Shown here: positions 5,244-57,481 of the stretch, one piece after another | How the letters are laid out: each line of letters opens with the position of its first letter | Position numbering within the stretch: position 1 is the stretch's first letter | Source of the DNA: Planctomycetota bacterium | Lineage (GTDB): Bacteria; Planctomycetota; UBA11346 | Direction: 5' to 3' | DNA: 64,000 nt | Assembly: GCA_038213805.1 (NCBI GenBank) | Contig: JBBQSO010000019.1 | Location: 1,114 to 65,113 of the forward strand | The notes under the pieces: generated by a model | What the model was told of the DNA's origin: nothing | Seen by the model: only the letters and a program-made list of their open reading frames with translations | The model's database searches: none | Program-made: the position numbers and the translations under genes

Positions 5244-6131
5244 ATGCCCCCTGAACCCACTGCGCCATCAGCCATCAGCCATCAGCCATCAGCCCTCCTG
5301 CAGTTCGACGACCTGCACGTCACCTTCGCACTGCGCGACCGCAACGTCGAGGCAGTCAAGGGCATCAGCTTCTCGGTATCCGCCGGCGAGGTCGTCGCCC
5401 TGGTCGGCGAATCCGGCTCCGGCAAATCAGTCTCCTCCATGTCCGTGCTGCGCCTCCTCCAGGAACCGCCCGCAACCTACCCGCGCGGCCGCATCCTGTG
5501 GAAGGGCGAGGACATCCTGCACATGGACAAGGCGCGCCTGCGCCGGCTGCGTGGTGGCGAGGCGGGGATGATTTTCCAGGAGCCGATGACCGCGCTCAAC
5601 CCGACCTGGACCTGCGGGGACCAGGTCGACGAGGCACTTGCCCTGCACACCGCGCTCGACCAGAAGGCGCGCCGCGCGCGCACCGTCGAACTGTTCCGCC
5701 TGGTCGGCATCCCGCAGCCCGAGACGCGCGCCGACCAATACCCGCACGAGCTTTCTGGCGGCATGCGTCAGCGCGTCTGCATCAGCATGGCGCTGGCCTG
5801 CCGGCCGCAGCTGCTGATCGCCGACGAACCCACCACGGCGCTCGACGTCACCATCCAGGCGCAAATCCTTGAGCTGATCAAGCGCCTGCAGCGCGAGCAG
5901 GGCCTGGCGGTGCTGTTCATCACCCACGACCTGGGCGTGGTCGCCGAGCTCGCCGACCGCGTGGTGTTGATGCGCCATGGCGCGATCGTCGAGCAGGGTC
6001 CCGTAAAGGAGATCTTCACCAATCCCCAGCACCCCTACACCAAGGGACTGCTCGCGTGCCGGCCGCGCTTGGGCGTGCGGCGGGATCGGTTGCCGACGGT
6101 AGATGACTTCATGGCGGGGGCGGGGGGCTGA
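5244..6131 (+). CDS. ABC transporter ATP-binding protein (OppD/DppD-like)
   Basis: Walker A 'GESGSGKS', signature 'LSGGMRQR', Walker B '[12 protein letters not shown]' and the C-terminal oligopeptide-ABC tail. The first ~18 codons are encoded by the repeat element, so the true N-terminus is uncertain. Confidence 0.85.
5264..5294. repeat. Heptanucleotide tandem array (GCCATCA)x~4.5, right arm of element 1 (inverted relative to 4794..4834)
   Basis: Direct reading. Lies inside the 5' end of the ATPase ORF, where it is translated as '[10 protein letters not shown]'. Confidence 0.9.
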
Positions 6132-6218: not shown

Positions 6219-6328
6219 TCGGGGTGATGACTGCATCCCCCGCGCCAGTAACAGCTTCGTCACGATCCCACACGACCATTGCCACCCAGGGGTAGAGCGG
6301 CTAAGAAATCGCGTCCCGGTGCGTAGGA

Positions 6329-6913
6329 GTGGCTGTGAGTCCAGGCGATGCCGAGCCATCTGACAGACGACTGCTTGAACGTTACTGCCGTCATGGCGAC
6401 GTCGGGGCCTTCGGCAGCCTGCTCGACCGGCACCAGGGCGACCTGCTGCGCTTCGCGCATTCCCTGCTCGGCGACGCGCATGCCGCCCAGGACGCCGTCC
6501 AGGAGGCGTTCTGCCGGCTGTGCCGCGAGGCGCACCGGCTGGGGCAGGGGGCCGCTGGCCAGGACTCACTGGGGGGTTGGCTGTGCACCGTCGTGCGCAA
6601 CGCCTGCATCGATGTCCTGCGCCGCCGGAGCTACGCGCCCATGACCACCATCGCCGAGCACCAGGAAGGCCAGGGCGCATCTCCCAGCGCTGCCGTCGCC
6701 GCCAGCGACGCCGGCGAATCGCTGTGGCGCGCGGTCGCCACCCTGCCGCCGCTCGAGCGCGCCGCGGTGGTGCTGCGCTACCGCGACGGTCTCAGCTACC
6801 AGGATATCGCCGTGCGCCTGGGCAAGACCGCGACGCACATCGGCGTGCTGCTCCACCAGGGACTCGGACGGCTGCGCCAGAGCGAACGCCTGCGCGCGGG
6901 GGTGATGCCATGA
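6329..6913 (+). CDS. ECF (sigma-70 family, group IV) RNA polymerase sigma factor
   Basis: 194 aa. Region 2 'DAVQEAFCRLCREAHRL...GWLCTVVRNACIDVLRRR' and region 4 'LPPLERAAVVLRYRDGLSYQDIAVRLGKTATHIGVLLHQGLGRLR'. Confidence 0.85.
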   Translation: MAVSPGDAEPSDRRLLERYCRHGDVGAFGSLLDRHQGDLLRFAHSLLGDAHAAQDAVQEAFCRLCREAHRLGQGAAGQDSLGGWLCTVVRNACIDVLRRRSYAPMTTIAEHQEGQGASPSAAVAASDAGESLWRAVATLPPLERAAVVLRYRDGLSYQDIAVRLGKTATHIGVLLHQGLGRLRQSERLRAGVMP

Positions 6914-9900
6914 ACGATGCCATGCACGACCAGACCGTGCCCACCGCCGCCGACGCGAACGGCGATCTCGGCTACCTGCTGACCGCCTACGCCGATGGCC
7001 AGCTGGCCCTCGAAGGCATGGCCTGGGTCGAGGAGCAGCTCGACCGACGGCCCGAGCTGCGCGCGCGCCTCAAGGAGATCCGCGCCGTGCAGGCCGCGCT
7101 GCGCGCGGAGTTCGCGCGCTTCCCGGCGCCGGAGGAACTCGGCGGATTCGCGCGTGGGCAGGTGCTGGACGCGGCGCGGCGCGGCCGGCCGTTCTTCCGC
7201 CAGCGCGGGGCGCAGGCGGCGCTGGTGATGATCTCCATCGGCATCGCGGCCATGGCCGCGGCGGCGGTGTTCGGCCTTCCCGCCAGCGTGGTGCACGGGA
7301 CCCGATCCTATGCCTCCTCCCAGCCGGCATCCGCGCCGATCCAGAAGTTGGAGACGCCACGTGGAGTTTATGACCCAGGTGAGTATGCGATGATCATCGA
7401 CCGCCCGAGCGCAGGTGAGAGCCGCGAGACCGACCAACTCGAAACGGTCCCGGATCGAGACGGATCCACTACCGCCGACGAGGACGGCGACGTCGCAAAA
7501 GGACGCGAAGAGACGCTGAACGAAGCCGACACGGCGTCCGGACACGGTGCCTTCATGGCCCTCGGCGCGGGCGGTGGCACCAGCGGCGGCCGGCGCTCCA
7601 AGCACAAGCCCGGCGAGCCCCCCGCCGCGCCGGGGGCTGCACCGACCGAGCAGCTGGCGCGCGCCGAGCAGGTCGTCGAAGCACGTGATTTCCAGGGCCA
7701 TGCCGCCCCGTTGCAGAAGGACGCTGGAGAGGTCAGCGCATCAGACCGCATGGTTGAGGAGATGGCGCAAGCGGTCGAACCGCCTGCAGCCGCGGCCAAG
7801 CCGGAACAAGTCGTGGTGACCGAAGGGCATTTCGGCGGCGGTAAACGCCTCGTCGCCGCCAGCGGCCACCATGGTGCGACCGATCTGCCTGCACCGGTCG
7901 GGGCGCCGCAGCCGCTCGCCGGAGTGAACGCAAGCCGCTCCAGCGAGGACAAGACCCGCAACCGCGAGCTTCAGTCGCGTCAAGCCGCTGCCGAATCCAT
8001 GTACGATGCCAAGAAGAGCAGTGTCGGCGGTGGTGACGGCAAGCTGCCGCCTGCGCGCCCGTCGTCGCCGCCCGCCGTCGCTGCCAACGGCACCACCTCG
8101 GTCGTCGCCACGCCGCCTGCCTCCAGCACGATAGCACTTCCAGCCAAGCCCGGTTCCACGAAATCGTCTGCGGGAGCCGTCGGTGGCATTGCCTATTCTG
8201 CGGAGCAGTCCGCGGCGAAAACCGGGGACCTGAAGGCGGCGCGGACCGCGCATACCGAGAAGACCCACATCGCCGAGGTCGGGAGGGCGGTCGCTTTCCA
8301 GCTCAATGGCAAGCTCGCCGAGGTCGAGGATGGCCTCAACCGCGCGAAGCAGCAGGGGCTCGACGGACAGCGGGACGGGGCTCCGTCCGCGGCTCCTGCG
8401 CAAATCGGACTTGCAGACCAGGAGTATCGCCAGCTCTCCGCTTCCGCTAACAAGGATCGCCTCCCCTACCTCAATGTCCCGGATCCGCTCGCCACTTTCA
8501 GCGAGCCGCTGCCGGAGTCGCACGAGCAGGCGCAGGCCATGCAGACAGCGGACGACGACCGGTCGATCGCCAAGCTCGACATCGTCAGGGAGCGCTATCC
8601 CAAGGTCTTCAACTCCTTCTCCGACGAGCACCAGTCGGCCGCCTTCTTCCAGGCGACCGTCTCCAGCGTCCGCAGCAACCCTCAGGGCGAGGGCGAGGGC
8701 GACCTGGTCATGCTCACCGTCGGGAAGCAGGACGCCGTCGATGCAGGCACCGAGTTCATCGTCTTCCGCGGCAGCCAGTACATCGTCAAGGTGCGCGCCG
8801 AGAAGGTTCTGAACGGCATGGTCGCATGCAGGGTGATCCCGGGATCCTGGAACGCCAACGGCGCGCAGATCCAGATGGGCGACCTCGCCCAGAACCGCCT
8901 GGGCGGCTCCGACGACGTCGAACGACCCGCCACGTCCGACCAGTCCTCCTCCCCCAGCCAGGCCCTCGCCACCGGCAATGCCCAGCGTGCCCCGCGCGAC
9001 CGCGTCGCCGCGCTGCTCACCACCACCTCGCTGAATGCTACCGCGCCGCTCGCCACCATACTGCGCCTCGCCGCCGGCCCCGACGGCGCCCTGGCCGCCA
9101 GCCCTGCGCTCGATGAGGTCCTCACCCGGCCAGCGCACCTCGAAACCCACGACCTGACCAGCGGCCAAGCGTTGCTGCAGCTCGCGCGCGGCGCCGGCCT
9201 GCAGGCACGTCTGTTGGGTGGAGTGCTGACCCTCGACACCGCGCGCGGGCAGCTCGACCCCACCGACACCCAGGGCCTGGACCGGGCACGCTTCACCAGC
9301 GCCTTCGGCACCGTGCCGATGGTCGCCACCGCCGAGGACGCGCGCAGCACCTTCGCGCTCGATGCCAACACCGCCTCGTTCGAGCGCGCCCGTTCGCAGC
9401 TGCGCAGCGGCCAGCTGCCCGATCCCGCCGCCATCCAGGCCGAGCACTTCATCAACGCCATGCCCATGGATTACCCGGCGGCGCGCGGGCCCGAGGCCTT
9501 TGCGCTCTACGCCGAAGCCGCGCCCTCACCGTTCGCGCTTGGCCCCGCCGATGCGGCGGTGCGCGCACCGTGGGCCGGCCGCACCGCGGTGGTGGCGATC
9601 GGCGCGGTGGCGCGCCCCGCCGCTCCGGACGAACGCCGTCCGCTGCACCTGACGCTGGCCCTCGACTGCTCCGGCTCGATGGCGCAGCCCGGCGGCCTCG
9701 ACCGCGTGCGCCTGGGGCTTGAGGAGCTGCTCACCCACCTGCGCCCGGTCGACACCGTGGCGGTGGTGGCCTTCAGCGACCAGGCGCGCGTGGTGCTGCC
9801 CGCGACCCCGGGCGGCGATTCCGCGCCGATCGCGCGCGCGCTCGCCGGCTTGACCCCGGGTGGCGCGACCAACGCGGTCGAGGGCCTGGCCCTCGCCTAC

Positions 9901-10752
9901 CAGCTCGCGGCCGAGCACCTCGAGCCCGGCACCGAGAACCGCGTGCTGTTCGCCACCGACGGCGGCACCCTGGCCGGGGCCGATGCGCAGGTGGTGATCG
10001 AGCGCGTCGCCGCCTACCGCAGCCGCGGCATCTCGCTGCTGGTGGTCGGCTGTGGTGGCGGCGCCTACCAGGGCCGCACCCTGCAGCAGCTTGCCGACCG
10101 CGCCGACGGCCAGCATGTCTTCCTCGGCAGCGACGCCGATGCGGTCAGCGCCTTCGCCAGCCGCCTGCTCCCCGAGCGCCTCGCCGTGCTAGCCAAGGAC
10201 GCCAAGGTGCAGGTCACCTGGAATCCGCAGCGCGTGAGCCATTTCCGCCTGATCGGCTATGAACAGCGCCGCCTTGCCCACCAGGACTTCCGCAACGACG
10301 CGGTCGACGCCGGTGAGATCAGCCACGACACCCAGGTCACCGCGCTGTACGAGGTGCTGCTGGTCGACGGCGCCACCGGCCCGCTGGGCAGCGCGGCGGT
10401 GCGCTACTTCGACACCCGCCTGCAGCAGGTGCGCGAGCTGTCCTGCCCGCTCGCCGGTGCGGTGCTGCAGGCCGAACCGGGCGAACGTCTGCGCCTGGTC
10501 GCCTGCGCCGCAGAATTCGCCGCGTGGCTGCAGCGCGGCTGGTGGAGCAACGTGCGCCCGACCACGCCGGCGCGCCTGCTCGGCGAGCTCGCGCACTGCC
10601 CGCAGGCCGAGGCGCGCGAGCTGGAGGAGCTGGTACAGCGCGCCGCGGCGCTGCAGCCGCAGCCCGTGCCGATCCCGCTGAACCGCAATGCGCTGCAGTC
10701 CAACACGCTCAACGCCGCCGCGCCGACCGACCAGGCCGCCCCCAAGCCATGA
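6910..10752 (+). CDS. Anti-sigma factor (RskA/ChrR-like N-terminal domain, single TM helix) fused to a long low-complexity extracytoplasmic region and a C-terminal von Willebrand factor A domain with intact MIDAS
   Basis: ATG 6910 overlaps the sigma stop (ATGA). N-terminus 'LGYLLTAYADGQLALEGMAWVEEQL' followed by the TM helix 'ALVMISIGIAAMAAAAVFGL'. VWA domain 'LHLTLALDCSGSMAQPGG...VDTVAVVAFSDQARVV...TPGGATN...VLFATDGG' (DxSxS, T and D of MIDAS all present). 1280 aa. Confidence 0.6.
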   Translation: MNDAMHDQTVPTAADANGDLGYLLTAYADGQLALEGMAWVEEQLDRRPELRARLKEIRAVQAALRAEFARFPAPEELGGFARGQVLDAARRGRPFFRQRGAQAALVMISIGIAAMAAAAVFGLPASVVHGTRSYASSQPASAPIQKLETPRGVYDPGEYAMIIDRPSAGESRETDQLETVPDRDGSTTADEDGDVAKGREETLNEADTASGHGAFMALGAGGGTSGGRRSKHKPGEPPAAPGAAPTEQLARAEQVVEARDFQGHAAPLQKDAGEVSASDRMVEEMAQAVEPPAAAAKPEQVVVTEGHFGGGKRLVAASGHHGATDLPAPVGAPQPLAGVNASRSSEDKTRNRELQSRQAAAESMYDAKKSSVGGGDGKLPPARPSSPPAVAANGTTSVVATPPASSTIALPAKPGSTKSSAGAVGGIAYSAEQSAAKTGDLKAARTAHTEKTHIAEVGRAVAFQLNGKLAEVEDGLNRAKQQGLDGQRDGAPSAAPAQIGLADQEYRQLSASANKDRLPYLNVPDPLATFSEPLPESHEQAQAMQTADDDRSIAKLDIVRERYPKVFNSFSDEHQSAAFFQATVSSVRSNPQGEGEGDLVMLTVGKQDAVDAGTEFIVFRGSQYIVKVRAEKVLNGMVACRVIPGSWNANGAQIQMGDLAQNRLGGSDDVERPATSDQSSSPSQALATGNAQRAPRDRVAALLTTTSLNATAPLATILRLAAGPDGALAASPALDEVLTRPAHLETHDLTSGQALLQLARGAGLQARLLGGVLTLDTARGQLDPTDTQGLDRARFTSAFGTVPMVATAEDARSTFALDANTASFERARSQLRSGQLPDPAAIQAEHFINAMPMDYPAARGPEAFALYAEAAPSPFALGPADAAVRAPWAGRTAVVAIGAVARPAAPDERRPLHLTLALDCSGSMAQPGGLDRVRLGLEELLTHLRPVDTVAVVAFSDQARVVLPATPGGDSAPIARALAGLTPGGATNAVEGLALAYQLAAEHLEPGTENRVLFATDGGTLAGADAQVVIERVAAYRSRGISLLVVGCGGGAYQGRTLQQLADRADGQHVFLGSDADAVSAFASRLLPERLAVLAKDAKVQVTWNPQRVSHFRLIGYEQRRLAHQDFRNDAVDAGEISHDTQVTALYEVLLVDGATGPLGSAAVRYFDTRLQQVRELSCPLAGAVLQAEPGERLRLVACAAEFAAWLQRGWWSNVRPTTPARLLGELAHCPQAEARELEELVQRAAALQPQPVPIPLNRNALQSNTLNAAAPTDQAAPKP

Positions 10753-13700
10753 CCCCACCGGAACATCCCATGCGCCTGCTGCCCTTCGCCGTCCTGCTCG
10801 CCGTCCTGTGCGCGGCCACCACGCCGGCCGCGTATGCCGCGACCGCTCCGGCCGAGGAGCTGCCGCCGCTGGTCTATGTGCCGATCAAGGAGGTGCCGCA
10901 GCTCGACCCCAAGGGCCAGGGCGTGTTCCTGCCCTATGACAAGTTCATCACCTTGTGGGAGGCGGCCAAACCCAAGCCGCCCACCCCAGTGGTCGACACG
11001 CCGCCGGTCGCCGCCGTGCTCGCCGGCTTCACCGTCACCGGGCAGACTCATGGCGACGTCGCGGAGCTGGTCCTGGACGGCACCGCCACCGCGCTCGCCA
11101 AGGGCTGGTCGACGCTGGCGCTGCCGGGCGGCCTGGCGCTCACCGATTTCACCCCCGACGACAAGCGCGTGGTGCTGCAGCGCAGCGGCGACGCCATGCA
11201 GCTGCACCTGCCCGAACCCGGCACGTACCGCTTCAGCGCGCACCTCTCCTTCCCGATCAGCCGCGACGCCGGCGGGCGACGCACCTTGGCGCTGGTCCTG
11301 CCGGTCGCCGGTGCAGGCCGCCTCGATCTGCTCATCGCCGACAACGAGGCGGAGGTCACCCTCGACCCGGTGGTCGCCGCCACCACCATCCCCGGCAAGG
11401 GCGGCACGCGCGTGCAGGCGGTGCTCGGCGGCGCCGCCAACCTGGCGGTGGCGTGGCAGCCGCCGGTGCAGCAGGTCGCGGGCGAGGCGCTGATCCTGGC
11501 CGACCACCAGCTGCGCCTGACCGTGGCCGAGCGCAGCCTGCGCTATGACCTCGCGGCCCAGCTCACCATCCTGCGCCGTCCGATCGACACCATCACCGTT
11601 GCCCTGCCGCCCGACACTCAGGTGCTGGCGGTCGAGGCGCGCACCTTGCGCACCTGGGAAAAGAGCGGCGACAGCGTGGTGCTGCACCTGCATGAGCCGG
11701 TCGAGGGCACCTATCCCGTGGCGCTGCGCCTGGAGCGCCTGCTGCCCGCGCTGGCGCCCGGCGCCAGCCGCACCGTCGCGGTCGCCTGGCCGCTGGTCGC
11801 CGCCGCCGGGCGCAGCACCGGCAGCGTCGCCGTGGTCCAGGCCGAAGGGCTGGCGGTCGCGGTCGAGCGCGCCGAGGGCCTCGCCCAGGTCGATCCCGCC
11901 GAAATCGCCGGCGGTCAGGGCGCGGTGTCGGCCTTCCGCTTCCTGGCGCCCCCGCCCGCCAGCGCCATCGCGGTGACGCGCCTGCAGAGCGACCTGCGCG
12001 TCGCCGTCCATCAGCTGGTGCGCCTTGGCGTCGAAGAGGACCTCATCGCCGTGGTGCTGCAGCTCGATGTGCGCAAGGCCGGGGTCTTCGCCCTGGCCCT
12101 CGACGTGCCCGCCGGCTGGGAACTCGCCGACCTCAGCGGCTTGAGCGTCGACGACACGCGCCTGGGCAAGGCCGAGGGCGGCGTGCGCCGCCTCGACCTC
12201 GCCCTGCGCGGCCGGCTGCTTGGCGCCGGTGAAGCGGTGCTGCGCTTCCGCGCGCCGGCCTCGATCCCGCGCGACGCCACGACCGCGGCCGCGCCGATCG
12301 TCCTGGCGCTGCTGCAGCTGGAAGGCGCACACCAGGTGCGCGGCAGCCTCGCCATCGCCGCCCCGCGCAGCTGGGCGCTGGCCAGCGGCGTGCGCAGCGC
12401 GCTGGGCGGCGCCGAGGCCGAACAGGTGCGCCGCGAAGGTCCGCTCGCCACTCTCGCCCACGAACTCAAGGAGGACGAGGACCTGCCGCTCGCCTTCACC
12501 GTGCTCGGCCCCGCCGCCGGTGTGACCATCATGGCGACGCCGCGCGCCCGCGAGCTCGCCGTGGTGCAGGAGGAAGCGGTCAGCGTCGCCGAGGGCCGCG
12601 TGCGCAGCCTGGTCACGCTGCGCGGCGAGGTGCGCTACAGCGCCGCCGCCGCGGTGCACGTGCGCCTGCCCAGCGCGCTCGACGCGCAGGTGGTGTTCGG
12701 CGGCGCGCTGCTCGCCGAGCACGTCGCCGGCGCGCGTGAGGGCGGCCTGACCACCTGGGAGCTGCGCTTCCAGGCGCCGGTACTGGGTCCGTTCACCCTG
12801 ACCATCGACAGCGCCCAGGAACTACCCGTGCTCACCGCCGGCACGTCGGTCACCGTAACCGTGCCAGCCGTGAGCGTGGCCGAGCAAGGCCTGCGCCTGA
12901 CGCGCGTGTGCGCGGTTGCGCGCACCGGCACCATCGAGGTCACCGCCAGCGCCGAAGGCCTCGACAACGTCGCTGCCGCCGACCTGCCCGCCGGCCTGCA
13001 GGGCCAGGGCGTGGTCGCTGGCTTCCAGGGCACCAAGCCCGGCGCGCTCACGCTCGAACTGGTGCGCCACGATCTGGTGGCGATGGCCGACGGCGCCGTC
13101 GCCGCCGCGCGCTACACCGCGGTGCTGGGCGACGACCAGGTGCTGCGCGTGCGCGGCGATCTGGTGCTGGCGACGCGCGGGCGCCCGTGGTTGGACCTGC
13201 GCCTGCCCGAGGGTGCCGAGCTGCTCGAAGTCGCCGTCGACCGCCGCCAGGGCCGGCCCAGCCGCCGCCCCGACGGCAGCGTGGTGGTGCCGCTGGGCGA
13301 CGGCAACGGCCTGCGCAGTCAACGCGTCGCCTTCGTCTATGAGCAGCGTCTGGGCGACGGCCGGGTCGGGCGCAGCGGCAGCGCGACCATCGCGCTGCCG
13401 CACCTCGGCACCGCGCCACAGGGCGAGAAGGGTGAAAAGGGCGCGCGCCCGCTGCCGGTCGGCCGGGTCGAATGCGTGCTGTTCGTGCCCGACGGCCTCG
13501 CGGCCTACGGCTGGTCCGGCGACCTGGAGCGTGTGGCGGCCAGCAGTGACGCGTGGTCGCGGCTGCTTGCCGGAATCGGCGCGACCGTGCAGCCGCGCAG
13601 CGCCGGCTTCGCGCCGCTGCCGGGCGGCGACGATGGGCTGACCGTGCCCCTGCCCATCTCCGGCACGCCGCACCAGCTGGTACGTCTTGGTGATGGCGGC

Positions 13701-14174
13701 AGCGCGCATCTGCGCTGGATCGACCGCGACCTGCTCACCCTGCTCGCGCTCGCCGCGGCGCTGGTTGGCGGCGTGCTGGTGTGGCTGGCGCGGGCGCGCA
13801 CGGAAGCGGTCGGCGCGCTGACCATCGCCGCGCTGGTGCTCGCGCTGGCCGCTGCCGGCGCGTGGTTCGCGGTGATCGCCGGCTTCGCCCTGGGCGTGGG
13901 CGCGGTGGTGCTGCTGCTGCTGGTGCGCGGCATGATGCGCCGCGTCGTGAGTGCGCCCGCCATGCCGGTGGTCGCCCCCGATCCGTGGCTTGAGTCGCCG
14001 CGCCCGGCCGCGGTGCCACCCGTGGCGATGCCTGCTGCGGCCGCCGAAAACCCGGACGCCCTCCCCGATGCCAGCGCGCCGGCTGATTCCGACGCGCCAC
14101 CGGCCCCGGATGCTGAGCCGCCCGCTCTTGGCAAGCGTCCGGACGGCTCCGACGACGACCGGAAGCAGCCGTGA
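10749..14174 (+). CDS. Large exported protein of unknown function (1141 aa) with signal peptide, two C-terminal TM helices and a Pro/Ala-rich tail
   Basis: ATG 10749 overlaps the upstream stop (ATGA). Signal peptide 'MRLLPFAVLLAVLCAATTPAAYAA'. Internally recurring 'LHLPEPGTYRFSAHL / VVLHLHEPVEGTYPVALRL' beta-rich modules. C-terminal hydrophobic segments at about aa 1000-1080. No recognisable catalytic motif. Confidence 0.45.
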   Translation: MTPPEHPMRLLPFAVLLAVLCAATTPAAYAATAPAEELPPLVYVPIKEVPQLDPKGQGVFLPYDKFITLWEAAKPKPPTPVVDTPPVAAVLAGFTVTGQTHGDVAELVLDGTATALAKGWSTLALPGGLALTDFTPDDKRVVLQRSGDAMQLHLPEPGTYRFSAHLSFPISRDAGGRRTLALVLPVAGAGRLDLLIADNEAEVTLDPVVAATTIPGKGGTRVQAVLGGAANLAVAWQPPVQQVAGEALILADHQLRLTVAERSLRYDLAAQLTILRRPIDTITVALPPDTQVLAVEARTLRTWEKSGDSVVLHLHEPVEGTYPVALRLERLLPALAPGASRTVAVAWPLVAAAGRSTGSVAVVQAEGLAVAVERAEGLAQVDPAEIAGGQGAVSAFRFLAPPPASAIAVTRLQSDLRVAVHQLVRLGVEEDLIAVVLQLDVRKAGVFALALDVPAGWELADLSGLSVDDTRLGKAEGGVRRLDLALRGRLLGAGEAVLRFRAPASIPRDATTAAAPIVLALLQLEGAHQVRGSLAIAAPRSWALASGVRSALGGAEAEQVRREGPLATLAHELKEDEDLPLAFTVLGPAAGVTIMATPRARELAVVQEEAVSVAEGRVRSLVTLRGEVRYSAAAAVHVRLPSALDAQVVFGGALLAEHVAGAREGGLTTWELRFQAPVLGPFTLTIDSAQELPVLTAGTSVTVTVPAVSVAEQGLRLTRVCAVARTGTIEVTASAEGLDNVAAADLPAGLQGQGVVAGFQGTKPGALTLELVRHDLVAMADGAVAAARYTAVLGDDQVLRVRGDLVLATRGRPWLDLRLPEGAELLEVAVDRRQGRPSRRPDGSVVVPLGDGNGLRSQRVAFVYEQRLGDGRVGRSGSATIALPHLGTAPQGEKGEKGARPLPVGRVECVLFVPDGLAAYGWSGDLERVAASSDAWSRLLAGIGATVQPRSAGFAPLPGGDDGLTVPLPISGTPHQLVRLGDGGSAHLRWIDRDLLTLLALAAALVGGVLVWLARARTEAVGALTIAALVLALAAAGAWFAVIAGFALGVGAVVLLLLVRGMMRRVVSAPAMPVVAPDPWLESPRPAAVPPVAMPAAAAENPDALPDASAPADSDAPPAPDAEPPALGKRPDGSDDDRKQP

Positions 14175-17100
14175 ACCGCGCTGCGCACGGCCTTGCGCTG
14201 CTCGCCGCGTTGCTGCTTGCCACCAACGCCACGCTACGCGCCGAGGAACGGCCGACCCAGCCCCTGGTGCTGCCGATGGTCGAGCTGCTGCGCCAGCTCG
14301 ATCCTCAGCGCGAGTGGCAGTTCGTGCCGCTCGCCGACTACCGCGCGCTGGTCGACGCGGCGCACCATGCTGCGGATGCGGCCGTCAGCGCACCGGGCGG
14401 CGCCTGGATCGAGCAGGCCACCGTCAGCGGCGAACTGCAGGGCGACCGCGAGCTGCGCTGCACCGCCGAACTCACCGTGGTCAGCGTGGCCGTCAGCGCG
14501 ACGCGCTGCCCGCTCTTCGCCACCGCTCCGGCCAGCCTCGGCGCGGTCACCATCGATGGCCAGCCCGCGCTCTACGTGCTCGGCGCGGCCCTGGAGCTGG
14601 TGGTGCCCGCGCCCGGCCGCCACCACGTGGCGATCGCCTGGGGCACCCGCCTTGCCGACGGCGACGAGCGCGTGCATCGCGGCCAGCTGGTGCTGCCGCT
14701 CGCCGCGGGCGCCGACGTGCACCTGCGCGCCACCACGCCGGGCGGTTTCAGCGGATCCGGCGTGATCGAGGAATCCGGCGCATCGCCGGGTTGGCGCATC
14801 ACCGGCAGCCGCGGTGGCGCGCTCGCGCTTTCCTGGCATCCCGGCCGCCTGTCCGGAAGCGACAGCGCGGTCTTCGGCGTCGAGCAGGCGGTGCAGGTCG
14901 CCGTCGTCGACGGCCCATCCTCGTTCCACTGGGTTGCGCGCCTCGCCGCGCGGCGCGGCAGCCTGCCGACCTCGCTCGACTTGGTGCTGCCCGCTGGCTG
15001 GACGATGGGCAGTCCCGGCCCGGGCGTGGTCGCGCTGACCGGTCCTGGAACCGCCGCCGATCCCGTGCACCTGACCCTCGATGCGCAGGCGCGCGAGATC
15101 GCCTGCGACGGTTTCATCGCCGCCGCCGCGCCGGTCGGCCTGCCGCTGGTGCAGGGGGCCGCCTACCAGGGCGGAACGGTGACGCTCAGCGCCTCCAGCC
15201 CGCTCGCCTACACGCTGCCGGGCGGCTGGCTGGCGACACCGGCCACCACCGAGGGCGGCGCAGTAGTGCGCCGCTTCGCACTCGCCGCACCCGACGCGGG
15301 CATGCGCGTCGCGCTGCGGCCCGCGGCCGACGGCCTGACCGTCGCCAGCACCGCCAGCGTCGCGATCGGCCCCACAGCGCACGGCGCGCGCCTCACCCAG
15401 GTGCTCACCATCTCTGGCGCTGGCCGGCCGCGCTTCGCCTTGCCGCTCCAGCTGCCGGCCGGCTGGCAGCTCACCGCCTTCGCCGCGACACCACCGGGCG
15501 CCATCGCCGAGCTCGCGGGCAGTGACGATCCCGGCACGCTGGTGCCGGGTGCCAGCGTCACGGTGCTGCTCACGCCCCGGCCCACGAATGAGTCGGTCAC
15601 GCTCACGCTGACGCTGAGCGGCGATACGACGGCCGTGCCGGTGCGCCTCGCCGCCATCCCCAGCGCGCAGCGCCTCAGCAGTCGTCTGGTGGTGCTCGCT
15701 GCACCGGGGCTGGAGGTCGGCATCACCGCCGGCGGCTGGCGCCTTGCCGAGCGCGCCGTGGCTTTCCCTGCGGACCGCGCCGATCAGGTACGCGCCGAAC
15801 TGTTCTGCACCGGCAGCACGCCCCCACTGGCCCTCGCGGTCGCGCCGCGTCGCCTCGCCGCCACCGCCGAGGCGGTGTGCTACCTGCTGCCGCGGGGCCC
15901 CGACGACACCTGGGCGCGCATCGACCTCCGCCTGCAAGTACAGGAGGGCGAGCTCACCCGCCTGCGCCTCGCCCTGCCGGTCGCTGCCGGCGCGCATCTG
16001 CATGCCGAGGATGCGCTGTTCACCGTCACCACGCTCGCCGGCGCAGTGCTGCTGGAAGCGCGCGCACCGTGGCGCGGTGAGCACTTGCTGCGCATCGAAG
16101 GTCCGCTCGCACCCGGCGAGGCGGGGCGTCTGCCGCAGCTCACCCTGAGCGCGGGCGCGGAGGGGGCTGACGCGATCGCGGTGCCGCTGCGCCAGATCAC
16201 CGCGGTGCAGGCGCCCACCGACCTCGATCTCGCGATCGTGCCCGGACGTGCGACGCTGCCGCTCGACGGTGACGAGCTGCCCGCGTGGAGCCGGCCGATC
16301 CCCGGTGCGCTGCTGGCGGGCGCCTGGCGCATGCCCGCGGGCGCCGCGCCCGGCACCCTGACCCTGGTCCAGCGCGCCCTGGCCGCGGTACCGGCGGGCT
16401 TCATCGACCGCGCCAGTGCGCGCACCCAGGTCTCGGCCGGTGGCGTCTCGACCTGGCTGCGCCTGCGCCTTGCCGCACCGGGCCTGGCCGAGCTGCCACT
16501 CGGCCTGCCCGAAGGATCGACCCTGCTCGCCGCGACCATCGACGGCCAGGCGACCGCGGTGCGCCGCCATGGGCACGAGCTGGTGCTGCCGCTGCCCGGC
16601 CGCACCCAGGTCGGGATCGTCCTGCTCTACGCGCTGCCCGCCCTACCGGATGCGGACGGCGAACTGGTCCAGCCGCTGCCGCGCCTCGCCGGCCTGCCCA
16701 TCACCACCTGCAGCTGGCAGGTGGCAATCGATGACCGCTGGCGCGTCATCCCCGTCGCCGCGCCGGACGCACTGCCGCTGACGATGCTCGTCGACGGGTC
16801 GCCGCTGCGACCGTGGTTCGCCACCTGGCGCACGCCGGGCGTCGGCAGCGACGTGCCGCCGCCGCCCGGCCTCGGCCAGCAGGCCGGCGACGATGCGCGC
16901 CAGCTGGTCGCCGCCGACCCGGCGCCGGCTGCCCCCGGTGAGCCCACGCTCATCCTTGCCGGGCAGCTGCTCGCCGGCGAACGCAGCGGAGACGGCGCCG
17001 TGCTGCGCCTGCGTCTCGCCGATCTGGAACGACTGCGCGGCGCCGACCGCACCGGCTGGGCGCTGGCCGCGATGTGCGGCGTCGCGTTGTTCGCGGTGGG

Positions 17101-20100
17101 CTGGCGCCAGCGCCTGCTGCTCGCTGCGGCGGCGCTGCTCACCGCCTGGGGCCTGCACACGTGGCAGATCGGCGCCGGCCCGCTGCTCGCCCTGGCCGAG
17201 GGGCTGCCGGTGGCGCTGCTGGTGCTGCCGCTGCTGCGCTGGCTGCTGCGCCTGGCGACCGCGCGGCGGCCACGCCTGCAGGTCGCGCTTTCGCTCCTGA
17301 TGGTCGCCGCCTGCTCCACGCACGGCGCCGCCGCCGACAGCGTGCTGATGGGCTACGACCACCTCGATGCTGCCGGCGTACCCATCGCCGTGCGCGTCGC
17401 CCTGACCCGTGACCAGCTCACCACGCTGTGGCAGCGCGCGCACGGCGAGACCGCCGCGCCCGCACCGGTATGCGTGCTGGCCACCGGCGCGGCGCGTTAT
17501 GCCCTCGACGCCGGCAGCACCGCAGTCGAGGTGCTGCTGACCATGCCGGTCGCGGTGCCCGGCGAGTCCTGGCAGGAGGTGCACCTCCCGCTCGGCACCG
17601 GCACGGTGCGCAGCGTGCGCGCCGAACGCCTCGGCCGCGTCCTCCCGCCCGCAGAGCTCGCGGCGCGCAGCGCGGGGGGCGTGCTGATCGTCGCCTGCCC
17701 CCCGCGCAGCCAGTTCCTGCTGAGCGTCGCTTTCGCGCTACCGCTGCACCCTGAGGCCGCGACCTCGTCCTTCGCACTGCCGGTGCTGCCCACGCACGGC
17801 GGCGAGGCGCGCCTACGCCTGCCCTCCGGGTGGACGCCTAGCTGCGCTGGCGGCACCGTCCGCGCGCCGGCCGGCAACGACGGCGAGTGGTTGCTCGACC
17901 TGCCCGTTGGCGTCCAGACCCTGGCCTGGCAGCTGCGCCGGACCGAGGCCGAAACCAGCCACGAACTGCACCGCACCCTCGACCAGACGCTGCGCGCCAG
18001 CCTCGCGCCGGGCCGCGTGGAATGGGACATCACCCTGCTGCTGGGCGCGCAGGGGGGCACGCTGCGCGAGGCGCGCCTGCATCTGCCGGCCGGCCTGGTC
18101 ATCACCACGGTCAGCGGCCCGGCGCTGGCCGCATGGCGGCAGGATGGTGCCGACTTGGAAATTTCCTGGAGCGAGCCGCGCACCGGCGCCATCGCCGTTC
18201 ACGCGCAGGGTCTGCAGCCGCGCAGCGCCGCACCCGGACACGCCCCCGCCGCGTGGTCATGGCCCGGCGCCGAACGCAACACCGGCCGCCTCGACCTGGT
18301 CCATGCCAGCGACGAACATTTTCTGCGCCCGGACCAGGCAGAGATCGAACGCGCCGAGCCGCGCCCCGGCGCCGCGCTCGCGGTGCGCTGGTCCGACCAT
18401 CCGAACGGTCTCGCCATCGCCTGGGAAGCCGCGGTCAACGAGTTGCGCGTGGTGCAGCAGGGCGCGCTGGTCGCGGGCCTCGACCGCCTGCGCGCCACCC
18501 TCATCACCACGCTCAGCGGACGCGGCTCATGCGACGCCCTCACCCTGCGCCTGCCCGCGCCCTGGCGTCTCACCGTGCTGCCCGCCGGCGTCACCGCGAC
18601 CTTCCCCGAGTCCGGCAACGGCCCGGCTGCCAACGCTGATCGCACCGTAACGCTGCGCACCGCCGAGCCGTGGCGCGCCGGCACCAGCGTCACCCTGCAG
18701 CTGGAAACCGAACGGGGCGGGCTCGGCGACACCTTCAGCGTCCCCGACGGGACTCCCACCGATCCCGCCCTGGTCCTCGATCGCCAGGAGTGGCTGTTCG
18801 GTGACGCGGGCGACCGCCGTCTGCGCCTCGAGGATGCCGGGCGCTTCACCCCGCTCTCCATCGAGGCGCTGGCCAGCGTGCTCGCCGCGCAAGGCGTCGC
18901 GCTGCGCCCGGGCGAATCCTGGCGCAGCGCCTGCGAGCGTCGCAGCGGCCCCGCGCCGCTGCTGTCGCTGCGCGCCGACAGCACGGTGGTGCAGGTCATC
19001 GCCAGCCATTACCTGGTCATCGGCCAGGAGCAGGTGCGCTGGTGGGCGCGCCTCGCCTGGCGCATCGACCAGGGCGCACTGCAGGAACTGCGCTGCACCC
19101 TGCCCACGGGCGCGCGCCTGGTGGCACTGCACGCCGCCGACCTCGGCTCCTGGCGCATGGAGGGGGCCGAGCTGATCGCAACCCTGGCCGCGCCGGCACG
19201 CCGCGCGGTCGCCCTCGACCTGTCGCTGGAAGTGCCGCTCGCCGACGCCGGCCACCTGATGGCCCTGGCCACGCCCGCCGGCCAGGCGCTCAGCGCGCAG
19301 ACCGTCGCGGTGGTCGAAGAGGACGAGCTCGGCCTGCTCCACCTCGACCCCGACGGCCTCGAGCCGATCGCCAGCGCCGAGCTCGCCGGCAACCTCCCCG
19401 ACGGCGTCGATGCCGCGCGCGTGCAGCAGCGTTGGCGCGCCGCGCGCCCGGGCTGGAGCCTGGGCATCGCGCGCGAGGCGGCCACCGCCAGCGGCGGCGC
19501 TGACGGCGTCGCCACCCTGGTCGACGTGCTCAGCGTCATCGCCCCCGACGGCGAACTGCGCTCACGCGCCACCTGGCACGTGCTCAACCGCACGCGCCAG
19601 GTCCTTGCCCTGCACGTGCCGTCCGGCCTTGCCCTGTGGGAAGCGCGCGTCGATGGCGCCGTGGTGCGGCCGCGCCTCGCCGACGCCACCGCGCGCGCCG
19701 GCGCCGCCGACGCCGGTCAGGAACTGCTGCTACCGGTGCGCACCCTGCGCCCCGGCGAGGCCACGCTGCGCATCGAGCTGACCTGGCGCCAGCAGGTCGC
19801 CGACACCGCGCGCTTCCGGCCCGGGGCGCCCCTGCTCGGCGAGCTGCGCATCATGCAGACGCTGTGGCGCTTCGTGCCACCGCCCGGACACGCGCTGACG
19901 CGCCGCGACGGCACCCTTGCCGAAATCCCCGCCACGCACGCCGCCGCACAGCGCGTACGCCGCGTCATTGAAGACCTCAAGCGCCTGCGCGGCGTGGGCA
20001 CGCTCAGCGACAGCGGCGTGCAACGCCTGCACGCGCAGCTCGAGGTCCTCGACCTCGAGCTCGACGACTATCTGGTCGACCTCAAGGGCCTGGGCGGCGA

Positions 20101-20632
20101 GGACGCCGACCTCAGCGCCGCGGCGGCGAGCGCGCGCACTCCCGAAGCGGCGGGCGAAGCCAAGGCCGCGATCGCCGACGTGGTCAGCAACCGGCGCGAC
20201 ATCCAGAGCGACCTGCAGCGCCTCGACGCACTCGCCGGCACGCGCGCCGGCCGGCGCAAGGCCCTCGGACTGTGGAATGGTGTGCAGACCTGGAACGGCC
20301 GGCAGGTGCTCGCTCCCGCCCAGCTCGCCGACTACCTGACGCGCCTCGACGACGGCGACCTGCCCTGGCAGTCCGCGCAGCCCCTGGCCGGCGGCGCGGC
20401 CCTCGGCGCAGGCGAACCGGCCCCCGGCCACCGCGCCAGCGCCACCGCCAGCCTGCTCGGCATCGACCTCATCCCGCCCACGGACGGCGAGGGGCTGGTG
20501 CTGCGCGGACAGGGCAGCGATCTGCAGGTGGAGTTGGCGCTGACGCGTGAGCCGGCGGCGCGCTGGCCGTGGTTGGCGCTGGTGGGTGGTGCGCTGCTGG
20601 CGGGCGCGACGCTGCTGGTGCGACGCCGCTGA
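14171..20632 (+). CDS. Giant exported or membrane-anchored protein of unknown function (2153 aa)
   Basis: GTG 14171 overlaps the upstream stop (GTGA). Signal peptide 'MNRAAHGLALLAALLLATNATLRA'. Central hydrophobic cluster at about aa 960-1040 and a C-terminal TM 'WPWLALVGGALLAGATLLVRRR'. Last gene of the sigma/anti-sigma operon. No recognisable domains by eye. Confidence 0.45.
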   Translation: MNRAAHGLALLAALLLATNATLRAEERPTQPLVLPMVELLRQLDPQREWQFVPLADYRALVDAAHHAADAAVSAPGGAWIEQATVSGELQGDRELRCTAELTVVSVAVSATRCPLFATAPASLGAVTIDGQPALYVLGAALELVVPAPGRHHVAIAWGTRLADGDERVHRGQLVLPLAAGADVHLRATTPGGFSGSGVIEESGASPGWRITGSRGGALALSWHPGRLSGSDSAVFGVEQAVQVAVVDGPSSFHWVARLAARRGSLPTSLDLVLPAGWTMGSPGPGVVALTGPGTAADPVHLTLDAQAREIACDGFIAAAAPVGLPLVQGAAYQGGTVTLSASSPLAYTLPGGWLATPATTEGGAVVRRFALAAPDAGMRVALRPAADGLTVASTASVAIGPTAHGARLTQVLTISGAGRPRFALPLQLPAGWQLTAFAATPPGAIAELAGSDDPGTLVPGASVTVLLTPRPTNESVTLTLTLSGDTTAVPVRLAAIPSAQRLSSRLVVLAAPGLEVGITAGGWRLAERAVAFPADRADQVRAELFCTGSTPPLALAVAPRRLAATAEAVCYLLPRGPDDTWARIDLRLQVQEGELTRLRLALPVAAGAHLHAEDALFTVTTLAGAVLLEARAPWRGEHLLRIEGPLAPGEAGRLPQLTLSAGAEGADAIAVPLRQITAVQAPTDLDLAIVPGRATLPLDGDELPAWSRPIPGALLAGAWRMPAGAAPGTLTLVQRALAAVPAGFIDRASARTQVSAGGVSTWLRLRLAAPGLAELPLGLPEGSTLLAATIDGQATAVRRHGHELVLPLPGRTQVGIVLLYALPALPDADGELVQPLPRLAGLPITTCSWQVAIDDRWRVIPVAAPDALPLTMLVDGSPLRPWFATWRTPGVGSDVPPPPGLGQQAGDDARQLVAADPAPAAPGEPTLILAGQLLAGERSGDGAVLRLRLADLERLRGADRTGWALAAMCGVALFAVGWRQRLLLAAAALLTAWGLHTWQIGAGPLLALAEGLPVALLVLPLLRWLLRLATARRPRLQVALSLLMVAACSTHGAAADSVLMGYDHLDAAGVPIAVRVALTRDQLTTLWQRAHGETAAPAPVCVLATGAARYALDAGSTAVEVLLTMPVAVPGESWQEVHLPLGTGTVRSVRAERLGRVLPPAELAARSAGGVLIVACPPRSQFLLSVAFALPLHPEAATSSFALPVLPTHGGEARLRLPSGWTPSCAGGTVRAPAGNDGEWLLDLPVGVQTLAWQLRRTEAETSHELHRTLDQTLRASLAPGRVEWDITLLLGAQGGTLREARLHLPAGLVITTVSGPALAAWRQDGADLEISWSEPRTGAIAVHAQGLQPRSAAPGHAPAAWSWPGAERNTGRLDLVHASDEHFLRPDQAEIERAEPRPGAALAVRWSDHPNGLAIAWEAAVNELRVVQQGALVAGLDRLRATLITTLSGRGSCDALTLRLPAPWRLTVLPAGVTATFPESGNGPAANADRTVTLRTAEPWRAGTSVTLQLETERGGLGDTFSVPDGTPTDPALVLDRQEWLFGDAGDRRLRLEDAGRFTPLSIEALASVLAAQGVALRPGESWRSACERRSGPAPLLSLRADSTVVQVIASHYLVIGQEQVRWWARLAWRIDQGALQELRCTLPTGARLVALHAADLGSWRMEGAELIATLAAPARRAVALDLSLEVPLADAGHLMALATPAGQALSAQTVAVVEEDELGLLHLDPDGLEPIASAELAGNLPDGVDAARVQQRWRAARPGWSLGIAREAATASGGADGVATLVDVLSVIAPDGELRSRATWHVLNRTRQVLALHVPSGLALWEARVDGAVVRPRLADATARAGAADAGQELLLPVRTLRPGEATLRIELTWRQQVADTARFRPGAPLLGELRIMQTLWRFVPPPGHALTRRDGTLAEIPATHAAAQRVRRVIEDLKRLRGVGTLSDSGVQRLHAQLEVLDLELDDYLVDLKGLGGEDADLSAAAASARTPEAAGEAKAAIADVVSNRRDIQSDLQRLDALAGTRAGRRKALGLWNGVQTWNGRQVLAPAQLADYLTRLDDGDLPWQSAQPLAGGAALGAGEPAPGHRASATASLLGIDLIPPTDGEGLVLRGQGSDLQVELALTREPAARWPWLALVGGALLAGATLLVRRR

Positions 20633-20673
20633 ATGCGGCCGCGCCGGGCCGCCTCAGGATTCATCGTCCACAC

Positions 20674-57479: not shown

Positions 57480-57481
57480 GC

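Follow-up and report, generated by a model that had tools for sequence, protein, structure and literature searches.

A conserved planctomycetal gene cassette joining an ECF σ factor and a VWA-bearing anti-σ factor to giant paralogous membrane proteins

Four co-directional genes (g1 to g4), spanning positions 6329-20632 on the + strand of the window (the whole 64-kb stretch of DNA analyzed here), encode an ECF σ factor, an anti-σ factor that crosses the membrane once and carries an extensive VWA sensor module outside the cytoplasm, and two giant proteins, and they form a unit that is conserved in gene order in independent loci. Sequence comparison shows the larger giant, the 2153-aa product of g4, to be two paralogues of the smaller one (the 1141-aa product of g3) fused head to tail. 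We refer to the three ancient paralogues as A (g3), B and C (the two halves of g4); all three start with a Sec signal peptide, continue with some five tandem β-sandwiches in the periplasm and are held in the cytoplasmic membrane by helices near the C terminus. Tentatively, we propose that A, B and C build a periplasmic scaffold whose state is monitored by the anti-σ factor.

Organization and conservation of the cassette

A preliminary description had annotated the genes as an ECF σ factor, a VWA anti-σ factor and two giants, and all four reading frames are present as stated (Table 1); searches of Pfam and NCBIfam bore out the identities of g1 and g2. Because orthologues exist and rough dN/dS values, taken against one close relative, fall between 0.11 and 0.35 across the four, all are judged from their sequences to be real genes under purifying selection. 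The same description had treated the four genes as one unit, and this held up: their order recurs in seven other independent loci, neither a σ70-like promoter nor an intrinsic terminator was found inside the unit, and a conserved promoter-like motif is present only upstream of the σ gene. It had further rested on 4-nt overlaps at each gene boundary. These are all present (ATGA at 6910, ATGA at 10749 and GTGA at 14171), but g3 is probably not translated from the one at 10749. In an alignment of homologues, M8 and R9 of g3 form the N terminus with at least 90% conservation; translation therefore probably begins at ATG 10770, which lies 17 nt past the g2 stop and gives a protein of 1134 aa; the start used for g1 is probably GTG 6335. 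Overlaps of 4 nt are frequent in operons of GC-rich genomes and do not establish a fixed stoichiometry; on this point, as in calling the assembly envelope-spanning, the description went too far.

Table 1. Positions in the window of the genes, protein segments and promoter-like motif of the cassette
Feature	Positions	Strand	Content or basis
Bipartite promoter-like motif CTAAG-N16-CGTAGG	6301-6327	+	ECF-type spacing, -10 core CGT
g1	6329-6913	+	ORF, 194 aa; ECF (group 4) σ factor
g2	6910-10752	+	ORF, 1280 aa; single-pass anti-σ factor with large extracytoplasmic VWA sensor module
g2 cytoplasmic anti-σ domain, aa ~15-95	6952-7194	+	Weak profile match and conserved consensus
g2 transmembrane (TM) helix, aa 103-125 (sole TM)	7216-7284	+	Kyte-Doolittle peak 2.4
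g2 A/G/S/P/E-rich disordered linker, aa 130-575	7297-8634	+	Composition
g2 periplasmic small β-barrel (aa 581-661) and STN/secretin-N0-like α/β domain (aa 682-777)	8650-9240	+	AF2 model
g2 vWF_A (aa 792-872), VWA (aa 892-1085), YfbK_C β-sandwich (aa 1093-1181) and helical bundle (aa 1192-1266)	9283-10707	+
g3	10749-14174	+	ORF, 1141 aa; giant paralogue A: signal peptide, N-terminal motif, five β-sandwiches, three TM helices, cytoplasmic tail
g4	14171-20632	+	ORF, 2153 aa; fused giant paralogues B and C
g4 module A' (paralogue B), aa 1-~1053	14171-17329	+	BLASTP, g3-family HMM, hydropathy
g4 module B' (paralogue C), aa ~1054-2153	17330-20632	+	g3-family HMM, hydropathy

The order σ factor, VWA anti-σ factor, A, B, C is kept in the window and in loci L001, L002, L003, L008, L012, L013 and the distant L016 (about 27% identity), with identities to g3 that range from 27% to 96%; L014 duplicates L008, and the two were counted as one locus. 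Each of the three paralogues has its own orthologue in the conserved loci, reading frames that overlap or nearly abut are retained across all eight, and the flanking genes differ in every one. A genome-contig search with a single protein had returned one near-identical locus only, from a metagenome-assembled genome (MAG) (L003), and a metagenome scan only four loci. Giants are also found with neither a σ nor a VWA gene beside them, namely in L011 and L017 and, within the reach of their short contigs, in L004-L007, from which it follows that giants can work without a regulator of the g1/g2 type. In L010 a 2420-aa giant adjoins a VIT+VWA protein, a recurrence of the giant-VWA association with a different VWA architecture.

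The regulatory pair and its upstream motif

The product of g1 matches Pfam Sigma70_r2 (2.4e-15, aa 31-101) and Sigma70_r4_2 (6.1e-13, aa 130-182) and scores 83 bits against the NCBIfam model TIGR02937, whose cutoff is 42.9. With σ2 and σ4 domains only, neither σ3 nor σ1.1, and a length of 194 aa, it has the sequence characteristics of an ECF (group 4) factor. Its orthologues in six loci are 51-95% identical, and in every locus the anti-σ gene overlaps the σ stop by 4 nt.

The motif CTAAG-N16-CGTAGG occurs once in the window, against 0.02 matches expected, and is followed 7 nt downstream by a conserved GTGAG whose GTG is that at 6335. In all close relatives it is found once per orthologous locus, in each case either immediately 5' of the called σ start or overlapping it; in the distant locus L016 it is weaker. 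On the basis of conservation and spacing, which are all that the assignment draws on, the motif fits a predicted autoregulated ECF promoter. The giants of L017 are instead preceded by GGAAC-N17-CGTC, which suggests that they are controlled by an ECF σ factor encoded elsewhere.

The extracytoplasmic part of the g2 product ends in vWF_A, VWA (8.1e-14) and YfbK_C (2.1e-24) domains, all three above their Pfam cutoffs, and this architecture is present in all orthologues. At the other end, aa 19-121 match NF010501 ("putative anti-sigmaE protein") with an E value of 1.1e-7, below the cutoff of that model; the consensus LLTAYADGxL is conserved near the N terminus of the orthologues (alignment A3), among which P0244 passes the gathering score for Pfam zf-HC2 (24.7 versus 22.2 bits) and P0230 matches it weakly, and the HxxxCxxC zinc motif is absent from g2 itself. 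The linker that follows the TM helix is hypervariable in length (whole orthologues measure 836-1377 aa), cannot be aligned even with that of the 87%-identical relative L003, and has low pLDDT in the part that was modeled. The periplasmic β-barrel and STN-like domain were modeled with a pLDDT of 86.8 and a pTM of 0.81; the orthologue P0237 scores 31 bits for Pfam STN (cutoff 28.4), with weak GspD_N0 and FecR_C matches. The VWA domain has an intact MIDAS (D919, S921, S923, T987 and D1017, the first three within D919-C-S921-G-S923), and its signature DxSxS...T...D is invariant or nearly so in 52 anti-σ orthologues; the rough dN/dS of the domain is 0.05-0.12.

The giant proteins and their family

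Hydropathy places the hydrophobic stretch of the g3 signal peptide at aa 10-26 and an anchor at aa 993-1064, where the AF2 model has three TM helices (aa 993-1067). Between them lie a conserved N-terminal motif (aa 39-75) and five tandem β-sandwich domains (aa 89-992), and beyond them a P/A-rich cytoplasmic tail with a conserved DPW motif. In g4 the hydrophobic stretches are at aa 5-24, 961-1053 and 2132-2150. Hydropathy and the AF2 helices together bear out the signal peptides and hydrophobic anchors (C-terminal in both proteins, and also central in the 2153-aa one) that had been proposed, and the C termini are plain TM anchors. The AlphaFold model of the giant (pLDDT 83) consists of five β-sandwiches of Ost1/M1-aminopeptidase-N/VIT-like type, the three TM helices and the cytoplasmic tail; its fold matches amount to generic β-sandwich similarity, with TM-scores of 0.1-0.3. 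Recurring β-rich modules of about 30 aa had been reported in the giants. The recurrence is real, but the units are hairpins within duplicated β-sandwich domains of 150-180 aa; the N-domain of g3 and its repeat 1, for instance, are 41% identical over 63 aa (E 2e-6).

Within g4, module A' matches the g3 family at aa 8-181 and 318-1035 (BLASTP and the g3-family HMM), and module B' at aa 1045-1468 and 1606-1838 (HMM). The former comprises a signal peptide and a β-rich ectodomain followed by four hydrophobic segments, of which three are TM helices and the fourth is what was once the signal peptide of paralogue C; the latter comprises a β-rich ectodomain, a helical insert (about aa 1925-2010) and one C-terminal TM helix, after which the protein ends in RRR. 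Because three TM helices are followed by the former signal peptide, both ectodomains of the fused protein would lie outside, and the topology is self-consistent. L002 and L008 encode B and C separately, but the two are fused in the window, L003, L016 and L017, and the fusion was present in 39 of a set of 142 family sequences made up of top-ranking search representatives and a small number of cluster members. Orthologues of paralogue C are 34-85% identical. The origin of g4 by fusion did not figure in the earlier reading.

Neither g3 nor g4 matched Pfam or NCBIfam; when these searches and PADLOC were extended to 45 close homologues and six distant representatives, no match recurred; no PDB sequence matched the family profile (best E 3.2); and none of the four proteins of the cassette matched the PADLOC anti-phage defense models. 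The statement that the giants carry no recognizable motif was in this respect upheld, whereas the statement that they have no characterized counterpart needs to be narrowed, in that they lack a characterized sequence relative but their type of fold (Ost1/M1-aminopeptidase N-domain/VIT-like β-sandwich) is a known one. Several more specific readings were set aside. The cysteine of an internal LMVAAC in g4, which might suggest a lipoprotein, is not conserved in orthologues encoded by separate genes; the g4 C terminus has no PEP motif and no NCBIfam match that would make it a PEP-CTERM protein; protease, thioester or aminopeptidase function is contradicted by the absence of HExxH and CxEQ, only a non-catalytic fold being held in common; and among the fold matches listed there were no structures of an AsmA/TamB-like lipid bridge.

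A profile search placed about 8,700 clusters at 50% identity in the giant family, about 3,100 of them at E<=1e-30. All the named matches that were checked were from Planctomycetota, and the clusters looked up, with the exception of P0086, consist of MAG proteins (Planctomycetota, Pirellulales or Thermoguttaceae) annotated as "hypothetical protein". A further profile-based homologue search brought in neither named nor cultured organisms. By these sequence searches the family is very large, planctomycetal and uncharacterized, and the layout of A followed by fused B-C recurs within it. P0086 carries the automatic JGI name "type II secretory pathway pseudopilin PulG", which nothing else that we found supports.

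A scaffold model, its rivals and related systems

We infer, as a possibility that falls somewhat short of probable, that the cassette specifies a self-regulated, inner-membrane-anchored periplasmic scaffold. The operon would be transcribed by its own σ factor from CTAAG-N16-CGTAGG, giving positive autoregulation, and A, B and C would assemble into a hetero-oligomer; since the genes for B and C are often fused, a Rosetta-stone argument points to physical association of those two. The VWA/MIDAS head of the anti-σ factor would bind the scaffold, or a ligand presented by it, and loss or alteration of this contact would inactivate the anti-σ factor and free the σ factor. Synthesis of the scaffold would thereby be matched to its state of assembly or occupancy. 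An analogue of outside-in signaling by integrins, in which A, B and C supply the "legs" as a long periplasmic complex anchored in the inner membrane, the tethered MIDAS-VWA "head" docks, and a ligand-induced, mechanical or assembly change read by the MIDAS contact releases the ECF σ factor, we regard as unlikely.

The linkage of giants to a regulator could also be of another kind. The VWA/STN-like head might sense an external or outer-envelope cue (a metal, protein or polysaccharide) independently of the giants, which would then be the induced output, for example an apparatus for capturing or binding macromolecules in an enlarged periplasm. The long, variable tether could carry the head far off the membrane; the STN-like domain and the weak FecR_C and GspD_N0 matches of one orthologue recall trans-envelope signaling by FecR and FecA; and the giants that lack a σ pair in L011 and L017, in the latter case with an ECF-like motif upstream, accord with this arrangement as well. 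It is nonetheless rather unlikely in our estimation, for the varying flanks of the cassette contain no conserved candidate partner, be it a TonB-dependent receptor, a secretin or another protein, and the tight and ancient linkage of the VWA anti-σ factor with three giants is better explained by direct functional contact. The topology of the giants (signal peptide, β-sandwiches and C-terminal TM) is that of BatD, and one distant family member gave a sub-threshold BatD match (E 0.034), as might be expected if membrane VWA and membrane-anchored BatD-like proteins formed a complex for tolerance of oxidative or envelope stress. We consider such a complex improbable: no gene for a MoxR ATPase, DUF58, BatA, BatC (TPR) or BatE is present in the cassette or its conserved neighborhood, Pfam BatD (PF13584) matches neither g3, g4 nor any of the 45 close homologues at E values up to 1, and the VWA is here fused to an anti-σ factor, unlike that of Bat proteins. 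The Bat system itself, moreover, has to our knowledge no characterized mechanism.

Export of the giants to the cell surface under ECF control, as adhesins or surface-layer proteins, is similarly doubtful, because the several C-terminal helices and the cytoplasmic tail indicate anchoring in the cytoplasmic membrane; Pfam and NCBIfam, moreover, revealed no adhesin, RTX, autotransporter, LPXTG, PEP-CTERM or T9SS sorting domain in the giants or their homologues, and no secretion-system genes are co-conserved. Finally, the absence of a σ or VWA neighbor from some family members might be taken to mean that the genes are merely adjacent and make up no functional unit. This we think very improbable indeed, given five modules in the same order in eight independent loci of 27-96% identity with unrelated flanks, the retention of abutting or overlapping frames and the single conserved upstream motif.

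Planctomycetes have an enlarged, invaginated and unusual periplasm, and very few of their envelope proteins are understood. Although neither Pfam nor NCBIfam has a model for the giant family, its predicted structure is of high confidence, and it is a candidate for a new Pfam family; in one broad clade a set of giants is wired to an ECF σ factor through a MIDAS-VWA anti-σ factor. Deletion of the anti-σ gene or mutation of the MIDAS would be expected to turn the operon on. If the VWA head does read the giants, a σ factor would here be keeping watch on an extracytoplasmic assembly in a new manner, and the integrin-like version, if true, would supply both a new ECF input mechanism and a function for a family that annotation currently misses, with its roughly 8,700 clusters. 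Should the head not read the giants, the family would still probably be an important constituent of the planctomycetal envelope.

Known systems resemble the cassette in part. The Bat operon pairs the membrane VWA proteins BatA and BatB with the membrane-anchored β-sandwich protein BatD, whereas MoxR, DUF58, BatC and BatE are missing from the cassette and from those related loci whose gene tables were checked. The giants are about 2-4 times as long as BatD and, unlike it, are three paralogues; the VWA module of g2 is compact and of YfbK/BatB/ITIH type, its resemblance to BatB being confined to the VWA fold. ITIH1/4 and integrins likewise combine a MIDAS VWA with VIT or leg-type β-sandwiches, a likeness at the level of fold only and with low TM-scores; Pfam found no VIT (PF08487), FG-GAP or integrin domains in g3, g4 or their homologues, and in the cassette the VWA and the β-sandwich arrays are on separate polypeptides and the output is a σ factor. 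The β-sandwich fold of the giants is shared, with no sequence similarity, by Ost1/ribophorin I, the N-terminal β domain of M1 aminopeptidases and TAF2, which have one or two copies (Ost1/M1 type) where the giants have five in tandem. The giants showed no sequence match to ribophorin I (PF04597), no oligosaccharyltransferase partners are nearby, and g2, g3 and g4 contain no HExxH and no catalytic M1 domain. Nor is there a CxEQ thioester of the bacterial α-2-macroglobulin type (Foldseek probability 0.16-0.23 only), and diagnostic domains of BIg/cadherin arrays, RTX/T1SS, autotransporter, LPXTG and PEP-CTERM proteins had no Pfam or NCBIfam match in the giants.

The regulatory half of the cassette also has parallels. 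FecI-FecR-FecA likewise couples an ECF σ factor to a single-pass anti-σ factor with a periplasmic sensor, but the locus encodes neither a FecR (PF04773) domain nor a TonB-dependent transducer, and its sensor is a MIDAS VWA. The vWF_A (PF12450), VWA and YfbK_C (PF12034) architecture of g2 is that of YfbK-type VWA proteins (K07114, "Ca-activated chloride channel homolog"). A search of the literature on YfbK, DUF3520, PF12034, PF12450 and planctomycete giant proteins returned only the re-classification of ECF σ factors (PMC7826278). There, group ECF289 is described as an ECF σ factor followed at +1 by a membrane anti-σ factor with extracytoplasmic VWA and YfbK_C/DUF3520 domains (Casas-Pastor 2021; PMC7826278), so that the pairing of a σ factor with a VWA+DUF3520 anti-σ factor, which might have seemed unprecedented, is not. 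By this shared architecture, g1 is a candidate member of ECF289. No member of the group has been studied experimentally, and a MIDAS-VWA input of this kind to an ECF σ factor has been catalogued but never studied. In the main text of that description, giant paralogous membrane proteins are not named as conserved context (PMC7826278). To the architecture described for ECF289, g2 adds a β-barrel and an STN-like domain carried on a disordered tether of about 450 aa.

Organization of the locus

Four co-directional ORFs span 6329-20632 (see table): g1, encoding an ECF sigma factor; g2, encoding an anti-sigma factor with a VWA module; and g3 and g4, encoding giant membrane-anchored proteins. The 4-nt overlaps reported in the preliminary description are present in the sequence (ATGA at 6910, ATGA at 10749 and GTGA at 14171), but such overlaps, which are frequent in GC-rich operons, are a sign of tight operon packing and not of the fixed stoichiometry that had been deduced from them. 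Two of the start codons assigned in that description probably differ. For g1 we favor GTG 6335 over 6329 because a conserved upstream motif (see below) precedes that GTG. For g3 the start is probably ATG 10770, after a 17-nt gap following the g2 stop, rather than in the overlap at 10749, because residues M8 and R9 are at least 90% conserved as an N-terminus in an alignment of 16 homologues. The GC content is 0.74-0.76 in the operon versus 0.62-0.69 in its surroundings. The convergent NHL-repeat gene downstream places the end of the operon at 20632. Searches between 5900 and 21200 yielded no match to a sigma-70-like promoter or an intrinsic terminator. Within the 41 nt that separate g4 from the NHL-repeat gene (20633-20673) is a GC-rich inverted repeat (GCGGCC...GGGCCGC) that lacks a T-tract and could serve as a bidirectional terminator.

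Features of the cassette and its neighbors. The dN/dS values are rough and refer to the 87%-identical relative L003.
Feature	Position	Strand	Length (aa)	Rough dN/dS
Opp/Dpp-type ABC transporter operon (SBP_bac_5, two permeases, ATPase with oligo_HPY), directly upstream of cassette	window 6-6131			
Upstream motif	window 6301-6340; L001 5142; L002 6903; L003 5778; L008 1112; L012 5162; L013 679			
g1	6329-6913	+	194	0.11
g2	6910-10752	+	1280	0.22 overall; VWA 0.05-0.12
g3	10749-14174	+	1141	0.21
g3 N-terminal beta-sandwich (AF2)	aa 89-237			
g3 three repeats, two 23-25-residue strands each (AF2)	start near aa 248, 415, 602		~175 each	
g3 C-terminal beta domain (AF2)	aa 782-992			
g3 three TM helices (AF2)	C-terminal to beta domain			
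g4	14171-20632	+	2153	0.35 overall
N-terminal part of module B	window 14171-15500			up to 0.4-0.7
NHL-repeat / He_PIG gene, convergent, downstream of g4	20674-22023	minus		

Elsewhere in the window, 48242-52342 encodes a 1366-aa protein with AMP-binding, AMP-binding_C and PP-binding domains and C-terminal hexapeptide-transferase repeats, predicted from these to be an NRPS-like or acyl-activating fusion. Two other large proteins are uncharacterised, one of 786 aa with DUF6687 (56099-58459) and one of 779 aa (36915-39254), whose ORF lies in a GC-rich stretch and matched no Pfam model.

The regulatory pair and its upstream element

The product of g1 is a standard ECF sigma factor (Sigma70_r2 and r4_2, with a TIGR02937 score that exceeds the cutoff). 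The N-terminus of g2 is anti-sigma-like (NF010501 over aa 19-121, E 1.1e-7, below that model's cutoff) and lacks a zinc motif; orthologues appear to confirm the assignment, P0244 passing the Pfam zf-HC2 cutoff. There follow a single TM helix (aa 103-125), a tether of ~450 aa rich in A/G/S/P/E that is not alignable between the window and L003, and a C-terminal module of vWF_A, VWA and YfbK_C with an intact metal-ion-dependent adhesion site (MIDAS). With the anti-sigma domain in the cytoplasm and a single TM helix after it, the predicted topology puts the VWA module outside the cytoplasm. AF2 gave a compact, confident model of aa 541-1280 (pLDDT 86.8, pTM 0.81), comprising a beta-barrel, an STN-like alpha/beta domain, vWF_A, VWA, a YfbK_C beta-sandwich and a helical bundle; in a second orthologue, P0237, the STN-type domain preceding the VWA passes the STN cutoff.

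Outside coding sequence, conservation was limited to CTAAG-N16-CGTAG(G/A) at window 6301-6327, with a conserved GTGAG 7 nt downstream. CTAAG-N16-CGTAGG occurs once in the 64-kb window versus 0.02 expected, and the motif is found once per close orthologous locus, each time where the sigma gene begins. The fixed 16-17-nt spacing of the element and its CGT core fit a putative ECF promoter. In L001, L002 and L008 the called sigma ORF includes the element, and the GTG that follows is in frame in six of the seven loci. The leader would thus be short or missing. Sigma starts may have been mis-called, and the sigma mRNA may be GUG-initiated and leaderless or nearly so. At L017, a Pirellulaceae locus with neither a sigma nor an anti-sigma gene adjacent, a classic ECF-like GGAAC-N17-CGTC (~9930-9958) lies upstream of giants of 1187 and 2743 aa; the family may be under ECF control even where sigma is encoded elsewhere.

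The giant paralogues

As described beforehand, the giants carry no recognisable motif: g3 and g4 matched no Pfam, NCBIfam or PADLOC model, and a family profile matched no PDB sequence. By BLASTP and a g3-homologue HMM (full-sequence E 1e-33), g4 resolves into a tandem pair of g3-like modules (aa 8-1035, and aa 1045-1838 and beyond). These are separate genes in L002 (987+1085 aa) and L008 (1040+1076 aa), and the cassette therefore codes for three paralogues, A (g3), B and C (fused in g4), with a common N-terminal motif, VYVPY...GVFLPYExFxxLW. The signal peptides and hydrophobic anchors noted earlier resolve into a coherent topology. Paralogue A begins with a signal peptide and an ectodomain, followed by three TM helices and a cytoplasmic tail that bears a conserved DPW motif; the build of B is the same. 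In C, the signal peptide and ectodomain are followed by a single TM helix at the C-terminus. In the fused protein, what was once C's signal peptide is a fourth hydrophobic segment that brings the chain back to the outside. The P/A-rich cytoplasmic tail of g3 (window 13950-14171, aa 1068-1141) contains an invariant DPW (D1078, P1079, W1080), to which a cytoplasmic partner might dock.

AF2 modelled g3 with a pLDDT of 83, exceeding 90 across most of the domains. Of the proposed recurring ~30-aa modules, two peptides do recur, but as hairpins at equivalent positions in domains 1 and 2, between which 63 aa align with 41% identity (E 2e-6). A structure search matched integrin alpha legs (Foldseek E ~1e-8), TM-scores being low for all matches. 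HExxH and thioester motifs were not found in the giants, which are best described as arrays of a known beta-sandwich type without a catalytic signature.

A word-index search returned 56 g3 homologues, all from uncultured Planctomycetota and all "hypothetical"; an exhaustive profile search returned 8,693 clusters (50% identity) at E<=1e-3, of which 3,094 reach E<=1e-30. Taxon labels, where given, are Pirellulales, Pirellulaceae, Thermoguttaceae or unclassified Planctomycetota, and the product name is "hypothetical protein" except for one automatic JGI label (P0086). Among the top-ranking sequences analysed, two length classes stand out, ~100 of 1000-1300 aa and 39 of 2150-2730 aa, the latter with a central TM cluster and a C-terminal TM helix; thus A plus fused BC is the family's standard form.

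The arrangement of sigma, anti-sigma(VWA) and giants is conserved: the order g1-g2-A-B-C recurs in L001, L002, L003, L008 (the same as L014), L012 and L013, where every paralogue has an orthologue of its own (31-96% identity), and in L016, where A is only ~27% identical. Members without regulators occur in L017 and L011 and, as far as the short contigs reach, in L004-L007. At L010 (10001-19703) the gene directly after that of a 2420-aa member encodes a 793-aa VIT+VWA protein, a second, different linkage of a VWA protein to giants. Between the window and L003, g3 is 96% identical in protein sequence and the N-terminal part of g4 only ~79%; B evolves markedly faster than A.

A tentative model and its relation to known systems

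The anatomy, paralogy, topology logic, synteny, intact MIDAS site and conserved upstream motif are established. We propose that g1 would drive its own operon; that A, B and C, whose physical association is suggested by the recurring B-C fusion, would assemble into a hetero-oligomeric scaffold in the periplasm, held by anchors in the inner membrane; that the tethered VWA head of g2 would bind this scaffold, or a ligand on it, via the MIDAS; and that disturbing this contact would release sigma. As a whole the model is plausible but tentative. Its giant-VWA partnership is supported indirectly, by the ancient linkage, by the VIT+VWA gene beside a family member and by the ITIH/integrin-like fold pairing.

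A variant in which the system signals from the cell surface in response to an external ligand is rather unlikely, though not negligible. A Bat-like stress complex is improbable, and giants acting as surface adhesins are similarly doubtful. The VWA module of g2 is of the YfbK/BatB/ITIH class, and the giants fail all sequence-based membership tests run (BatD, Ribophorin_I, VIT, M1 peptidase, alpha-2-macroglobulin, adhesin families and defence systems). Integrin-like and inter-alpha-trypsin-inhibitor-like genes in planctomycetes have been pointed out previously (PMC6906331). The Opp/Dpp-type transporter operon is not kept beside the cassette in other loci, and flanking genes differ from locus to locus at all of them; chance adjacency of the cassette genes is highly improbable.

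The cassette is a solid finding, broadly conserved and experimentally tractable, and the locus is best classed as an envelope operon, probably under ECF control, that carries members of a large and unnamed protein family. In Planctomycetota, giant envelope proteins that are uncharacterised are no rarity. The earlier view that the system lacks a characterised counterpart holds for the giants, which fail each sequence test, but the fold type is known and the regulatory pair is ECF289-like, of a catalogued, unstudied kind. An ECF289 anti-sigma factor with DUF3520 (YfbK_C) fused to VWA is already catalogued in PMC7826278, whose passage on this architecture cites no experimental work; beyond that source, our literature search returned no mention of these domains in an ECF anti-sigma context. 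Ost1, the M1 N-domain and VIT resemble the giants in fold type only.
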